DNA from: a virus | Taxonomy: Duplodnaviria > Caudoviricetes | IMG/VR virus record: IMGVR_UViG_3300049988_000245 | Coordinates: 160,001-224,000 of that record | Length of the DNA: 64,000 bases | Reading direction: 5' to 3' (one strand) | Shown here: in pieces, positions 3,542 through 50,640 of the stretch | Layout of the letters: each line of letters opens with the position of its first letter | Numbering within the stretch: the first letter of the stretch is position 1 | Program-made: the position numbers and the translations under genes | The notes under the pieces: generated by a model | The model's input: the letters and a program-made list of their open reading frames with translations, nothing else | Told to the model about the DNA's origin: nothing | Database searches by the model: none

Positions 3542-3572
3542 AAAGGGCGGCGCCGAAAGCGCCGCCCTTTTT
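3542..3572. terminator. Bidirectional intrinsic terminator
   Basis: AAAGGGCGGCGC-cgaaa-GCGCCGCCCTTT between convergent genes. Confidence 0.9.
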
Positions 3573-3849
3573 ACATCCACCGAAGTTTGAACTCGAATGC
3601 CAGGGCCGTCTCGACCTCAAGCTGACGGTACCACGCTTTGCGCATCATACCCCACTTCAGATTGAGGCCCCGCCCCTCACACCAGAGAATGGGTTCGCAA
3701 TTATGGGCAATATCCATTGTCTCGCATTCAACATAGATGAGCGCGCGATTCTGACCCCTCTTGTAGATGTTCACAAGAAAGCTCCCATAATCGGGTTTCT
3801 TGTAGAGCTTGCCCTTGCCGCGCAGGCCCGCGCTTGGAAAATCCCACAT
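3571..3849 (-). CDS. Short paralogue of the FKxRW C-terminal motif family
   Basis: Ends LAFEFKLRWM. Start MWDF overlaps the upstream stop (TAATG). Confidence 0.7.
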   Translation of the reverse strand: MWDFPSAGLRGKGKLYKKPDYGSFLVNIYKRGQNRALIYVECETMDIAHNCEPILWCEGRGLNLKWGMMRKAWYRQLEVETALAFEFKLRWM

Positions 3850-4154
3850 TATCCGAATCTCATCTTGAAGCCGAACGCGGTGTTCTCGTCGGTGAACGTG
3901 AAGACGATGGTCGTGTGTCTGCATTCGAGCGTGAATTCGCCGACCGCCTCATCCCCTCGCATCCAATAGCCGATCGGCCCGCGCCCGAAGGCATGGAACT
4001 CCATGATCGGGTCATCGTACTGAATCCTTGTGGATTGCTGTTTCCCGAACATCCAGGGGATGGATTGCCCCGTGGTGGGTCGGGGCCACGATATCGCAAC
4101 GGGGTATGCGAGAATCGCGACAGTTTCCTTGATGTCGATTCGCTTCGCTGCCAT
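3849..4154 (-). CDS. FKxRW-family paralogue
   Basis: Ends FTFTDENTAFGFKMRFG. Confidence 0.75.
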   Translation of the reverse strand: MAAKRIDIKETVAILAYPVAISWPRPTTGQSIPWMFGKQQSTRIQYDDPIMEFHAFGRGPIGYWMRGDEAVGEFTLECRHTTIVFTFTDENTAFGFKMRFG

Positions 4155-4157
4155 CGG

Positions 4158-4742
4158 TCAAGTCCATGTCATACGAAATTCGAACGCAAAGTTGGGGTCC
4201 TTGAATCGCAGTGCACCTTTCCAGCGGACCACACCGTCGCCGTAACGGGCGATCGCCCAGGCATGGGCGGTTTCGCGGTTCTTCGTCAGCCGCACAGCAA
4301 CGGGAAAGTCCCGTGGGACGGATTCAAAGAACGCTTCGATTTCGGCGATCTCCTGCCGGAACGCCTCGTACGATCCGGTTAGGCCGACGCAGCGATAGCG
4401 CCAACCATCGGGGCTCCCCTGGGCGTGGTACCGGACTTCCCAGAGTGGACGCTGAACGGTCAACAAACTGTTCTCTCGGGCGACCTTGAACCGCCTCTCC
4501 TGAATCTGTCGCTTCGCCATCGTTTTCTTGCGCGATCCGCTCCGCGTCGGAGAGATGCCGAATTTTCCGATCGGGGCAAGATGACGATGCAGGAAGGCCA
4601 TCTCGGCGATCGTTGGAGCGGCCTGGACCGGCTCCCAGAAATGCTTCGACGATTCCGGGCAGGCGAAGCCTTGCGGACCCGGCCCGGTGCCGCGCCTGCG
4701 CTTGAGATCGTTCTTCGTTCGTGGAGTTCGAGAGGTCAGCAT
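4158..4742 (-). CDS. FKxRW-family paralogue with N-terminal extension
   Basis: Ends LRFKDPNFAFEFRMTWT. The ATG lies 6 nt below a -10 box. Confidence 0.7.
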   Translation of the reverse strand: MLTSRTPRTKNDLKRRRGTGPGPQGFACPESSKHFWEPVQAAPTIAEMAFLHRHLAPIGKFGISPTRSGSRKKTMAKRQIQERRFKVARENSLLTVQRPLWEVRYHAQGSPDGWRYRCVGLTGSYEAFRQEIAEIEAFFESVPRDFPVAVRLTKNRETAHAWAIARYGDGVVRWKGALRFKDPNFAFEFRMTWT

Positions 4743-4748
4743 GAATCC

Positions 4749-4776
4749 AGTGTAGACTGATTTTGATTTCGTACAA
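4749..4776 (-). promoter_or_regulatory. sigma70-like promoter, 16-nt spacer
   Basis: TTGTAC-N16-TACACT, then 6 nt to ATG 4742. Confidence 0.55.
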
Positions 4777-4808
4777 CGAATTTATTGCGCGATGATTAAC
4801 GAGTGTTT

Positions 4809-4816
4809 TATAAATA
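4809..4816 (+). promoter_or_regulatory. T4-late-like promoter TATAAATA upstream of hsp20
   Basis: Exact T4 late consensus, 4 nt before the first 5'-UTR hairpin. Confidence 0.55.
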
Positions 4817-4820
4817 CTTT

Positions 4821-4894
4821 CGAGCAGTCCACAAAGGATGCTTGCCTGACGCCCTCGGGGTCAGAAATTTACAATTCTCGCTTTCATTAGGAGA
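4821..4894 (+). ncRNA. ROSE-like RNA thermometer in hsp20 5' UTR
   Basis: Three hairpins (4821-4844, 4846-4864, 4876-4894). The last, UCUCGCU-uucauu-AGGAGA, pairs the UCGCU motif with the SD and leaves the G bulged. ATG at 4903. Confidence 0.7.
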
Positions 4895-4902
4895 TACATA
4901 TT

Positions 4903-5460
4903 ATGTCTAATAATCGCACCCTCACACCTGAGCAGTTGATTCGTCATTTCATCGGCTATGACCGAGTTGCTGCCAACTCCTCCGCATTTCCCCCGCATAA
5001 CATCGAGAAGCTGACCGAGGACGCCTACCGTCTGACACTGGCGGTTGCCGGTTTCGATCGCAGCGAGATCGAGATGTACGAGCACAAGGGGACGCTCACG
5101 ATCTCCGGCCGTAAGAAGCCCACGTCCCAAGAATCACGTTCCGTTCGTGGTGACCTCGATGTGGATGCGCTCAACGAATGGGCTGATTCCAAAGGCAAGG
5201 TCAACGTCGATCCGCGTGAGCGCGCCGCCGCGTCGCAAGCCGCCCTCAAGGCGCGATTCGGGATTGACGAGGCCCCGCCGACGCCGAGCCCCGTGTTCCT
5301 CCACCAGGGTATCGCCCTGCGCGATTGGGACCGCCAATTCAATCTCGGCGAGTTCATTGAGGTGCGTGGCGCCTCCATGGCAAACGGTCTGTTGATGATC
5401 GATCTGGAGCGCCGTGTTCCTGAAGCACACAAGCCCAAGCTGATCGACATCCGCGCGTAA
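4903..5460 (+). CDS. ibpA: Small heat-shock protein Hsp20 (IbpA-like) with internal insertion
   Basis: FPPHNIEK..YRLTLAVAGF, FLHQGIA.R.W.RQF.L.E.IEV.GA.M.NGLL.IDLER.VPE..KPK.I.I. Confidence 0.92.
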   Translation: MSNNRTLTPEQLIRHFIGYDRVAANSSAFPPHNIEKLTEDAYRLTLAVAGFDRSEIEMYEHKGTLTISGRKKPTSQESRSVRGDLDVDALNEWADSKGKVNVDPRERAAASQAALKARFGIDEAPPTPSPVFLHQGIALRDWDRQFNLGEFIEVRGASMANGLLMIDLERRVPEAHKPKLIDIRA

Positions 5461-5523
5461 TTATTGCATTCGCACCCGGTGGGTCGTTAGGCTCACCGGG
5501 TACCGCAACATTACGAGGCGCGC

Positions 5524-5817
5524 ATGTCAACGGCGACCGACACTCTGACGAAGACCCAACTCAAGGTCCCTTCGATGTGGAAAGTGCTACTCCACAACGA
5601 CGATTACACCCCGATGGATTTCGTGATCGAGATTCTGATTCAGGTGTTCCACAAGGGCGCGGAAGAGGCCCACACGCTGACGATGGCGGTCCACAATCAG
5701 GGCAAGGCGAACGTCGGCCTGTACACGAAAGAGATCGCCGAGACCAAGGTGCTTCAGGTCGAGCGGATTGCGCGGGAAGCTGGTCATCCGCTAAAGGTTA
5801 CAGCAGAAGAAGCATAA
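5524..5817 (+). CDS. clpS: ATP-dependent Clp protease adaptor ClpS
   Basis: PSMWKVLLHNDDYTPMDFVIEIL..VFH..VHNQGKANVGLYTKEIAETK..HPLK. Confidence 0.95.
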   Translation: MSTATDTLTKTQLKVPSMWKVLLHNDDYTPMDFVIEILIQVFHKGAEEAHTLTMAVHNQGKANVGLYTKEIAETKVLQVERIAREAGHPLKVTAEEA

Positions 5818-5840
5818 CCAAACAAAAACACCCGCCTGAA

Positions 5841-5846
5841 TAAATA
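5841..5846 (+). promoter_or_regulatory. TAAATA late-type promoter
   Basis: Intergenic, 35 nt upstream of ATG 5882. Confidence 0.45.
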
Positions 5847-5881
5847 AGCTTGTCTTAAACTTTCAGGTGGTAAACAAAAGA

Positions 5882-6178
5882 ATGTCGCGCCCTAAGCCGT
5901 CCATTCTGCTCGATTACACAGACCCGAAGACGTACAAAGCTGAGCAGGTTCTCAAGGCTGAGGCGATCTACGCGGTGTTCTATGATGGGCAGCCGATCAA
6001 TCTACGTTCTCTGAACGTACTTCTCGATTATCCGGGTCCAAAGTACAAGAAGGTTTCCTTCTCGAATCCTGGGCATGCATTCAACTTGTCGGAGAAGCTT
6101 AATAAGCTCTTCAAGACTAACAAGTTCGAAGTGTTTATGCTCTCAGAAGGCAAGAAGATTACCGAAACGGACGAATGA
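5882..6178 (+). CDS. Conserved large-phage hypothetical protein (MSRPKP type)
   Basis: MSRPKP.IL..EQVL.AEAIYAVFY.GQPINLR..YPGPKYKKVSFSNPGHAFNL..KLN pattern. Confidence 0.75.
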   Translation: MSRPKPSILLDYTDPKTYKAEQVLKAEAIYAVFYDGQPINLRSLNVLLDYPGPKYKKVSFSNPGHAFNLSEKLNKLFKTNKFEVFMLSEGKKITETDE

Positions 6179-6573
6179 ATCCCGTTCACACCGCCATCGT
6201 CCGGCGTGTGCGCGAAACCATAACGCTGGAGGGCAAAAAGAAAAAGCTCTCCAGCGCTCTTGCTCTGCTGACTGACGAGCAGGTAGCTCGAATGATGTTC
6301 TCCAACTTCCGGGGGAAGGGGAATGAGACCCGAGGGATGCGCCTAACCAGTGGCGGCCTCAAAATGATGCTGTCATGCTTCCAGCACGTTGAGGTGATTC
6401 TCCCTAAGGCCAGAAAACTTCAAGCGGGCGAACTCGTCTATTTGGATCGTCGTGCGAAGCTCCCTTACTACTGCACCGACGAAAAACTTGTCGTCTTCGA
6501 GACAGAGTTGGGGATGAAGATTAAGCTCTACGGGGGCGATATCAACGCGATCATCGCCGTGGAATCCTACTAG
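6175..6573 (+). CDS. Hypothetical protein
   Basis: ATGA overlap with the preceding gene; 132 aa. Confidence 0.65.
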   Translation: MNPVHTAIVRRVRETITLEGKKKKLSSALALLTDEQVARMMFSNFRGKGNETRGMRLTSGGLKMMLSCFQHVEVILPKARKLQAGELVYLDRRAKLPYYCTDEKLVVFETELGMKIKLYGGDINAIIAVESY

Positions 6574-6575
6574 GA

Positions 6576-6583
6576 TTAACCAT
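6576..6583 (+). promoter_or_regulatory. TTAACCAT, CtrA-like half site
   Basis: Intergenic, 35 nt above the promoter at 6619. Confidence 0.3.
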
Positions 6584-6618
6584 AAGCGAATCTCCCAATT
6601 TCGTTCGACGAAATTCGC

Positions 6619-6646
6619 TTGACCGGCTTCGGAATGCTGGTAGAAA
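6619..6646 (+). promoter_or_regulatory. sigma70-like promoter, 16-nt spacer
   Basis: TTGACC-N16-TAGAAA upstream of the AAA gene. Confidence 0.4.
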
Positions 6647-6716
6647 TGACCTCGTTGATAGCGGATTTCGATGCGGGGCGCATCGGACGGGCCTTCATTC
6701 TAGAGGAAGCATTTAA

Positions 6717-8222
6717 ATGAGCAAGAGCAGCAAGAAGATCGAGAGCACCCAGCTTAAGCCGTCCGAAATCTCTGCCGCAATTCGCGCCGCAATGAAGACC
6801 GATCGGTCTGCATTCATCTGGGGTCCCCCCGGAATTTCGAAGTCCCAGGTCTCCTCGCAGATCGCCACCGACATGGGCATCGCCTTCGTCGATTTCCGCC
6901 TCTCCCAGCTTGACCCGACCGATCTGCGCGGCATCCCCTACCCGACCAAGGTCGGCGGTCGCGAGGGCGTTCGGTGGTCCATCCCCTACGCTCTGCCGGT
7001 GGACATGGACCTGACGTTCACCGTCCGCATCGACGACGCCGACGAGACCCGCGTCGAGGTGTCCAACCCCAAGGGCTCCAACGGCATCCACTACGTCACC
7101 AACCCGCGCATCCGCGTCACCTCGCTCACCGATGGTGTCACCGCCCAGGTGATCCAGCAGTACGAGACCGACGAGGACGGCGAGGTCGTGTACTACGATG
7201 ACGAGGGCACCCTCGTGAAGGCTCTCACCGGTACCCCGGTGGTCGATTTCCTGGCGGCCCAGAAGCTCGGCAAGCACCCGGCCAACGTCGCCCCGGTCAA
7301 GGTGAACAACCTCGACAGCGTCGTGATCCTTCTCACCGATGATGCCACGGGCAAGCCCACCACGGGTCGCGTCCGTATCGTCGGCACCGGAAAGGCCCGC
7401 GCGGTCCTCGCCCTGGAGGAGTTCAACTCGGCTCCCCCGTCCGTGCAGGCGTCGGCCTACCAGTTCGTGCTCGATCGTCGCCTCGGCGAGTACATCGTGC
7501 CGAAGGGTGTGAAGATCATCGCCATGGGTAACCGTGACACCGACAAGGGCGTCACCTACAAGATGCCCACCCCGATCGCCAACCGCTTCATCCACTTGGA
7601 GATGCGTCCGGACTTCGAGGACTGGCAGATTTGGGCGCTCAAGCACGAGGTGCACCCGGACGTGGTCGGCTACCTCTCGGCGTTCAAGCAGCAACTCTTC
7701 GACTTCGATCCCGGCACGGCGGCCCGTGGCTTCGCCACTCCGCGTTCCTGGCACTATGTGTCGGACCTCCTGCAACAGAACGGCGATCTCCCCGAGATGG
7801 TCGGCGTCGGTCTGGTGACCGGCTCGGTCGGCGATGGACCCGGCCTCCAGTTCTGGGAGTTCCGCAAGATCGCCCGTGACCTGCCCGAGGCGGACAAAAT
7901 CCTCTCCGGCCAACTCAAGAAGATGCCCCGTCAGGTCGAGATTTCGCTCGCCTACGCTCTGACCACGACCCTGTGCTACGAGTTGAAGGAGCGTTACTCG
8001 AAGTTCGAGCGCAAGCAGGGCTGGCAGAACGGCGAGGATTACAAGAAGTGGATGTCGGAGGCTGACAACTTCATCGAGTTCCTGATGGAGAACTTCCAGC
8101 CCGAGATCAGCATCATGGCGACCCGCGCTGCGGTGCAGGTTCACAAGCTGCCGTTCCACATGAGCAAGATGAAGAACTTCCTCAAGTTCGCCGAGAAGTA
8201 CCGCAGCCTCGTGATGTCCTAA
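6717..8222 (+). CDS. MoxR-like AAA+ ATPase with ~130-aa insertion
   Basis: Walker A IWGPPGISKS, RLSQLDPTDLRGIP, Walker B LALEEFNSAPP, NRFIHLE, FATPRSW; followed by a VWA gene. Confidence 0.9.
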   Translation: MSKSSKKIESTQLKPSEISAAIRAAMKTDRSAFIWGPPGISKSQVSSQIATDMGIAFVDFRLSQLDPTDLRGIPYPTKVGGREGVRWSIPYALPVDMDLTFTVRIDDADETRVEVSNPKGSNGIHYVTNPRIRVTSLTDGVTAQVIQQYETDEDGEVVYYDDEGTLVKALTGTPVVDFLAAQKLGKHPANVAPVKVNNLDSVVILLTDDATGKPTTGRVRIVGTGKARAVLALEEFNSAPPSVQASAYQFVLDRRLGEYIVPKGVKIIAMGNRDTDKGVTYKMPTPIANRFIHLEMRPDFEDWQIWALKHEVHPDVVGYLSAFKQQLFDFDPGTAARGFATPRSWHYVSDLLQQNGDLPEMVGVGLVTGSVGDGPGLQFWEFRKIARDLPEADKILSGQLKKMPRQVEISLAYALTTTLCYELKERYSKFERKQGWQNGEDYKKWMSEADNFIEFLMENFQPEISIMATRAAVQVHKLPFHMSKMKNFLKFAEKYRSLVMS

Positions 8223-45388: not shown

Positions 45389-46114
45389 TCAGTGGGCGTT
45401 TTGACCGAACGCACGCTCGCGCTGGCGGCGGAAGATCGATGAGTCTGTCTTCGTCGGTGTTACCACGACGTTCTGCATGACCGGCTTGGTTGCCACCATC
45501 GCACGGGGCTTGCGGGTTTTCTGGAGGGGAAGCGGATTCTCAGCGAAGTGTTGGAACAGCCTGTCGATAATGCTGCTGGCTTCTCGGGCCGCAGCAAAAG
45601 CACGCTGTGGCGTTTCGCATGAAATTCCCGAAACAGTGCTTTCTAGCATCTGAAGGGTTGAGCGAATCTGCTCGGATGCAGGAAGAGGCTCTTGGATCGG
45701 GTTTGCGTTGTTCTCGTGGAGATTCAGTTCTTCCACGACGGTGGATTGGGCGGGAATGGTCTCGCGTGGCCAAATCCGGATGTGGGCTTCCCAACGCTCT
45801 GGGGCATATCCCTTGCCCGCGTGGGGAACTGCTTCCATCCAGCCGCCGGTTCGACGCTGGAGAATGTAATAGGGATTTCCGAGAGGGTTCGTGAGGAGAC
45901 TGAGGAGGTGTCCGGCTTGACTGCCTTCGATTGTTGCCTCGGCCCCGCCTCGGCGCTTATCCGTGATTTCGACAACGTCGGAATCATCCCCTCCGATTTT
46001 GTGCACCGGCTTGAAGAAAACAGCGTTGCCTTCGACCTTGATCCGGATACCCACGGCGTCTTCCCCGAGGAAGAACATCTTCACCGCTGGCTTATTGAAG
46101 GTCATCTTAAACAT
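45389..46114 (-). CDS. Hypothetical protein
   Basis: Long ORF ending before the terminator. Confidence 0.65.
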   Translation of the reverse strand: MFKMTFNKPAVKMFFLGEDAVGIRIKVEGNAVFFKPVHKIGGDDSDVVEITDKRRGGAEATIEGSQAGHLLSLLTNPLGNPYYILQRRTGGWMEAVPHAGKGYAPERWEAHIRIWPRETIPAQSTVVEELNLHENNANPIQEPLPASEQIRSTLQMLESTVSGISCETPQRAFAAAREASSIIDRLFQHFAENPLPLQKTRKPRAMVATKPVMQNVVVTPTKTDSSIFRRQRERAFGQNAH

Positions 46115-50632: not shown

Positions 50633-50640
50633 TATAAATA
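50633..50640 (+). promoter_or_regulatory. T4-late-like promoter TATAAATA
   Basis: Exact consensus, then GGGAG RBS, then ATG 50658. Confidence 0.6.

Follow-up and report, generated by a model that had tools for sequence, protein, structure and literature searches.

ROSE-type RNA thermometers are known from the chromosomes of alpha- and gamma-proteobacteria, and the enterobacterial ibpA gene, which bears one, is sigma32-dependent. The definition of a ROSE-like thermometer includes a position in the 5′ UTR of a small heat-shock protein (sHsp) gene, two to four hairpins, and a U(U/C)GCU sequence facing the Shine–Dalgarno (SD) sequence, and the ibpA gene of Pseudomonas has likewise been shown to be sigma32-dependent (PMC3669281). 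The 5′ UTR of ibpA is also a site of protein-mediated control: the IbpAs of E. coli and other gamma-proteobacteria repress their own translation through it, E. coli IbpA by binding it. For this, Arg93 is irreplaceable and an aromatic residue at position 34 is required; a positive charge at positions 97/98 is necessary too, as either R97A or K98A alone abolishes repression. R93 is common in alpha-proteobacterial IbpAs too (PMC10474464).

We analysed a 64,000-nt stretch of DNA (hereafter the window), bases 160001–224000 of the 265,895-bp IMG/VR virus record IMGVR_UViG_3300049988_000245 (completeness 57%, CheckV), for which an original prediction, made from the letters of the window, had proposed a phage-encoded ROSE element before an hsp20 gene. 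Among deposited phages, only the 469-kb Sinorhizobium phage Phosso is related at the DNA level; the source is therefore a jumbo phage, as had been assumed, and the record is about 57% of the genome of such a phage, distantly related to Phosso. Elsewhere the record has genes with matches to a gp32-like SSB, a DNA helicase, a tail fibre and a virion structural protein, which bears out that the leader, in a virus record with such genes, is encoded by a phage. The phage and its relatives are present in leaf, phyllosphere and silage metagenomes; leaf surfaces presumably undergo large daily swings of temperature.

The element (4821–4894) lies in the 5′ leader of a gene for a 185-aa protein that matches Pfam HSP20 at 39.1 bits (cut-off, 20.8). 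The match is split in two by an insertion of about 60 residues in the alpha-crystallin domain, and alignment to Salmonella IbpA gives 32% identity with a 62-residue gap. The insert lies between strands b5 and b7 (window 5110–5300, residues about 70–133), at the position of the bacterial b6 dimerisation loop; it is common to homologues of 171–185 aa (P0001, P0003, P0004 and, judging by its length, P0002), is absent from IbpA and from homologues of 129–139 aa, and was modelled by AlphaFold2 with two helices at a pLDDT of 61–76.

Table 1. Features of the hsp20 locus, in window coordinates
Feature	Position	Strand	Basis or remark
Intergenic stretch	4743–4902		Between the minus-strand gene 4158–4742 and the hsp20 ORF
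−35-like hexamer TTGCGC	4786–4791	+	18 nt (4792–4808 plus T4809 counted as N) upstream of ATAAATA
TATAAATA box, −10-like element	4809–4816	+	Ends 4 nt before hairpin I; clade conservation
Hairpin I: 6 bp, bulged G, 3 bp, 5-nt loop	4821–4844	+	MFE fold, covariation
Hairpin II: 5 bp, unpaired G, 2 bp GC top, tetraloop	4846–4864	+	MFE fold, covariation
Hairpin III: anti-SD UCUCGCU (4876–4882), loop UUCAUU, SD AGGAGA (4889–4894)	4876–4894	+	MFE fold, ROSE_2 alignment
hsp20, IbpA-type small heat-shock protein, 185 aa	4903–5460	+	Pfam HSP20, Salmonella IbpA alignment, AlphaFold2 model
clpS, Clp protease adaptor	5524–5817	+	Pfam ClpS, 114 bits

All coordinates and letters of the original prediction, from the TATAAATA box to the ATG, match the sequence, and its three hairpins are exactly reproduced in the minimum-free-energy (MFE) fold of 4818–4920 at 37 °C (RNAfold; Table 1). 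The same three hairpins appear in the consensus fold, with support from covariation. In hairpin III, U4876–C4879 and C4881–U4882 pair with A4889–A4894, leaving G4880 bulged, and 8 nt separate the SD from the ATG. The proposed ROSE signature, with its bulged G in a three-hairpin sHsp leader, is thus found in both the letters and the MFE fold, as UCGCU (4878–4882) opposite AGGAGA; the non-canonical pairs of such elements lie beyond folding models. At the level of sequence, the leader has all the defining features of ROSE-like thermometers. Its place in a phage record, rather than on an alpha- or gamma-proteobacterial chromosome, is the point of novelty and has no bearing on function. Taken alone, the sequence folds only slightly better than chance (z = −1.99, with an equally good fold in 7 of 200 shuffles), so the claim of more-than-chance structure rests on comparison.

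For this comparison, relatives were gathered by protein search and from their contigs, together with Phosso and two complete jumbo-phage records (480 and 578 kb). A scan of viral contigs with the single protein gave no relative and an alignment-based scan recovered them; one homologue (P0002, 63% identity) has no contig on record. The resulting clade comprises 11 leaders, that of the window and those of ten relatives (32–88% protein identity), the cultured Phosso and both complete records among them. Throughout the clade (11/11), a NATAAATA box 82–88 nt before the ATG is followed by hairpins I and II, then by a short linker rich in A and U, and last by the anti-SD hairpin. With a covariance model derived from nine related leaders, the window reaches 91 bits. 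When 14 sequences were aligned to the model, 89.4% of pairing cells could pair, compared with 41–53% when partners were slid by 1–3 columns; fitting to the model structure favours that structure, and the slid controls share the same fit. The covariation observed in this alignment was reached by none of 500 shuffles. Double compensatory changes were seen in 13 of the 14 pairs of hairpins I and II (all nine in hairpin I and four of five in hairpin II). Because so many pairs are compensated, and pairing exceeds the 53% that is the most any slid control attains, helices I and II are, on the evidence of the alignment, under selection as RNA; their covariation implies that both are transcribed, from a start upstream of 4821.

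Helix III behaves differently, being conserved in sequence. Its only variation is a C to U wobble, which is the U(U/C)GCU alternation itself, and as it has no double compensatory change, covariation alone cannot separate its pairing from the conservation of an SD and an unrelated motif. A related phage is represented in a phyllosphere metatranscriptome library by a 440-nt contig that extends from hairpin II through hairpin III into an hsp20 gene lacking the insert and that bears an additional compensatory change, C-G to U-A, in hairpin II. All four sequencing runs compared consisted of contigs, which carry no start, strand or level; this RNA-library run contains a relative, not the source phage, and could include carried-over DNA.

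In two of the relatives (L005 and L008) a run of five U stands immediately 3′ of hairpin II, as in an intrinsic terminator. The window differs in this respect, with no terminator-like site in 4000–6300, and we do not propose attenuation, as the five-U run is confined to these two leaders rather than conserved.

The surroundings of the gene are also partly shared. The order hsp20–clpS recurs in four relatives (L003, L004, L005 and L008), and in Phosso the two are one gene apart. A wider neighbourhood (window 4903–8222), found in the same four relatives, in L009 and in Phosso (L002), consists of hsp20, clpS, two small ORFs (about 98 and 132 aa) and an ATPase-like protein of 465–501 aa that has a Walker A-like GPPGISKS motif and no Pfam match; a DUF2201 protein comes next in L008 and L009, and clpX and ribosomal protein S21 lie upstream in L008. 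The neighbourhood looks like a phage proteostasis module. On the other side of the intergenic stretch, three tandem minus-strand ORFs (117, 101 and 194 aa; window 3571–4742), without Pfam matches, have a C-terminal motif AF(E/G)F(K/R)(L/M)(R/T)(W/F) in common and look paralogous; L003 carries this trio before hsp20 too. In another viral contig (L152), from the unselected sample described below, two tRNA genes adjoin hsp20 (1191–1358; Rfam tRNA, 72.6 and 56.2 bits).

We examined how closely the anti-SD motif is tied to hsp20 in a sample of viral hsp20 loci picked by protein motifs and hence unselected for their leaders. U(U/C)GCU followed after 3–12 nt by AGGA stands directly before the start codon in 47 of 53 non-redundant leaders. 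As background, 3 of 110 SD-bearing ORFs of at least 100 aa in the phage record match U(U/C)GCU...AGGA; one is hsp20, and the others, at record positions 45567 and 208421, were taken as chance matches, the rest of the architecture being absent there. A longer pattern (ATAAATA, 50–78 nt, TCTYGCT, 3–8 nt, AGGAGA) has at least 127 matches in IMG/VR, and among the matches listed an hsp20 ORF begins 4–7 nt after the pattern in 93 of 127. The clade model finds one copy each in the source record, in Phosso and in the complete 480-kb phage. It has no match at E ≤ 0.1 in the complete 578-kb phage, whose hsp20 leader shows the same layout by eye. Phages that carry the motif span 32–60% GC.

We consider it likely that the hsp20 leader is a ROSE-like element of translational control that opens on warming; the response to temperature is read from homology of form, and the start of transcription and the switching range are likewise inferred. 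Hairpins I and II would act as stable scaffold helices. The weak hairpin III, in which UCUCGCU pairs imperfectly with the SD around the bulged G4880, would keep the 30S subunit off at low temperature, and as the infected cell warms it would open, allowing the phage sHsp to be made. At 37 °C, hairpin III of the window is predicted to fold with −3.5 kcal/mol, compared with −4.2 kcal/mol in Salmonella ibpA, and those clade members in which the motif was found mostly give −2.7 to −3.5 kcal/mol (−0.6 in L009), so that by these models hairpin III in the clade is no more stable than that of the experimentally validated type, for which Salmonella ibpA was taken as representative. The value for the window changes from −5.9 kcal/mol at 20 °C to −1.6 kcal/mol at 50 °C. 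When G4880 is deleted in silico, the SD becomes less accessible, its unpaired probability falling from about 0.2 to 0.01–0.04; G-deletion mutants of ROSE are locked off. In these models, the marginal stability and the effect of the deletion fit zipper opening on warming. The mean unpaired probability of the SD is about 0.2 throughout 15–50 °C, with hairpin III still in the MFE fold at 50 °C; because nearest-neighbour models omit, and cannot represent, the non-canonical pairs of ROSE elements, we do not count this folding series either way.

It is possible, rather than probable, that the leader is mainly a site of self-repression by the phage sHsp, in which case titration of the protein by unfolded or aggregating proteins, for example the virion load, would release translation, and the sensor would report protein aggregation rather than, or besides, temperature. 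Alignment places in the phage protein the residues on which self-repression by IbpA depends (Arg93, a basic residue at 97/98 and an aromatic one at 34): R140, equivalent to R93, is invariant in 19 homologues, R144 (R97) is nearly so, and F29 (Y34) lies within FPPHNIE. In each phage genome with a model match, hsp20 is also the only gene to bear the leader, as an autoregulatory site would predict. However, the equivalent of K98 is Q, and R140 comes 8 residues after the insert of about 60 aa, which may alter the surface there. Thermometer and self-repression coexist in E. coli, so the two are complementary, not exclusive.

The ATAAATA core of the box upstream of hairpin I is invariant in all 11 clade leaders (the preceding base is T in seven, C in three and A in one), and TATAAATA occurs twice in the window against an expected 0.3. 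In 8 of the 11 leaders TTGNNN stands 18 nt upstream, and in two more it is offset by 1–2 nt. Across the record, 7 of 44 NATAAATA sites have TTGNNN at 18 nt, compared with about two at shifted offsets; among those with it are one upstream of the SSB gene and one upstream of a stretch resembling the 3′ part of a tRNA gene, and sites without a −35 precede the tail fibre gene and the virion protein gene. The octamer is identical to the TATAAATA consensus of T4-type late promoters and nearly invariant in the clade, but promoters of that type have no −35, whereas the clade has its conserved TTGNNN, and the NATAAATA sites here precede replication as well as structural genes. A phage late promoter, which the original prediction had offered with a hedge, is thus not supported as such. 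From the conserved −35, its excess over shifted offsets and its presence at the SSB and tRNA-like sites, the hsp20 promoter is probably of sigma70 type, which these sequences make somewhat the more probable of the two. With TATAAA as −10, transcription would start 4–7 nt after the TATAAATA box, at about 4820–4823, which would put hairpin I at the 5′ end of the mRNA; in Phosso the hsp20 start would be expected just 3′ of the CATAAATA box.

The 44 copies of ATAAATA in the 266-kb record compare with roughly 13 expected from base composition, and they often lie 17–90 nt before start codons (an example is window 50633–50640). The sites with a TTG −35 (about seven) and those without may form two promoter classes. 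About 10 nt upstream of the −35-like hexamer is a box, (G)CAAC(G/A)A(A), present in the window (4774–4780) and in L003, L004, L005 and L010, which could be an UP-like element or the site of a regulator of the divergent promoter region.

Stem-loops at the 5′ terminus are mRNA stabilisers, and the leader might be a constitutive structure without a switch, with hairpin I protecting the mRNA from decay and hairpin III damping translation to a fixed low level. The near-constant occupancy of hairpin III at 15–50 °C in silico agrees with such an arrangement, which we nevertheless regard as improbable: it leaves unexplained why the exact ROSE anti-SD motif and bulged G are kept across phages of 32–60% GC, almost only on hsp20, and why the hairpin is held at marginal stability. 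A start inside the leader, from a sigma70-like CTGACG-18-TACAAT at 4846–4875, would give an mRNA without the anti-SD strand and hence without hairpin III, but although this is the sole promoter-like site found by consensus scan in 4000–6300 and UACAAU recurs in the linker of five of nine relatives, we rejected it as very improbable, since shuffled sequence yields as many such sites (0.9 expected), its −35 falls inside helix II, which covaries as RNA, and, more weakly given the possible DNA carry-over, the RNA-library contig of a relative spans hairpins II and III into hsp20.

The original prediction knew of no described phage ROSE element, and the literature agrees: among the papers searched, none deals with ROSE-like elements, or thermometers at large, on phage hsp20 genes, the only phage thermometer mentioned is of another kind, and a paper on the Sinorhizobium jumbo phage AP-J-162 merely lists an Hsp20 gene. 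The element described here has been selected for in cultured and uncultured jumbo phages and is present on most of the viral hsp20 genes sampled. If it works as its bacterial counterparts do, phages would tune the supply of a chaperone to temperature or folding stress after transcription, independently of host sigma32, which, if true, would bear on infections on sun-heated leaves, in soil and at sea. The leaders also offer a small natural collection of thermometer variants, rich in compensatory changes, from which to learn how a switching temperature is set. Because Phosso grows on Sinorhizobium meliloti, the thermometer hypothesis is directly testable.

More speculatively, and in our view unlikely as a whole, the leader would be an old phage-wide module that accompanies viral hsp20 in phages as different as marine low-GC ones and half-megabase jumbo phages of soil and leaf, and senses both heat and sHsp titration. 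Heat would open the anti-SD hairpin, and the sHsp would bind the leader through its Arg93 equivalent until titrated by unfolded virion proteins. Such a circuit would give phages a post-transcriptional, host-independent control of proteostasis for which the host heat-shock sigma factor is dispensable.

Among curated families, the leader has its best match in ROSE_2 (RF01832), at 16.4 bits (E = 0.61, 301 nt searched), where the gathering score is 65; Salmonella ibpA, used as a control, reaches 95.2 bits with this model. The Rfam comparison that the original prediction had named as a check does not call the leader, with none of the ROSE models reaching its gathering score: ROSE (RF00435) and ROSE_3 (RF02523) have no match at gathering in the window and none at E ≤ 10 in 4700–5000, the clade loci have no Rfam ROSE match at E ≤ 10, and the whole window has no match at Rfam gathering thresholds. 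One marine viral hsp20 locus reaches 26 bits with ROSE_3. As the sequence-level features are present and no Rfam model reaches threshold, we class the leader as a phage-borne variant of the ROSE kind, outside every curated Rfam family.

Of the rhizobial, Pseudomonas and enterobacterial types, the first, ROSE1 (RF00435), is also found on sHsp genes and reportedly lies behind sigma70-type promoters. The nearest cellular homologues that we found, by profile search of genome contigs (four loci, three inspected), are in three Rhizobiales MAGs with classic ROSE1-type leaders; their 3′ hairpin, ..AUGUUGCUCAAGUGAGGAUGUGG.., extends to the AUG and their upstream helices are unrelated to those of the window, so that no cellular donor of the leader was seen among the three loci inspected. 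In the short thermometers of Pseudomonas ibpA (ROSE_3, RF02523), the 3′ hairpin holds U(U/C)GCU against the SD, blocking it, and the upstream hairpin is stable and does not melt (Krajewski et al. 2013, PMC3669281). A two-hairpin form of this type was seen in many hsp20 leaders of marine phages in our sample, whereas the clade of the window has three hairpins and no ROSE_3 match at E ≤ 10.

The enterobacterial ibpA thermometer (ROSE_2) also has three hairpins before an IbpA-type sHsp gene. Hairpin III of the window and the spacer after it are almost base-for-base like the ROSE_2 consensus (UUCUCGCU, a 6-nt loop, AGGAG, spacer, AUUAUG), and the bulged G and marginal stability are common to both. 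Hairpins I and II differ from those of ibpA in sequence, which is why ROSE_2 gives the window only 16.4 bits. The tops of the window hairpins (4821–4864; stem, G, UCC, loop, GGA, stem, and stem, GCC, tetraloop, GGG, stem) recur in the upstream hairpins of Salmonella ibpA (L211) in opposite order, which may be chance among GC-rich stem tops. The locus in the window is further set apart from enterobacterial ibpA by being phage-borne, by its TATAAATA box with a TTG −35 and by the insert of about 60 aa in its sHsp. Beside the two-hairpin leaders of marine phages it adds a three-hairpin form, in a clade of Phosso-like jumbo phages, with a conserved promoter −35.
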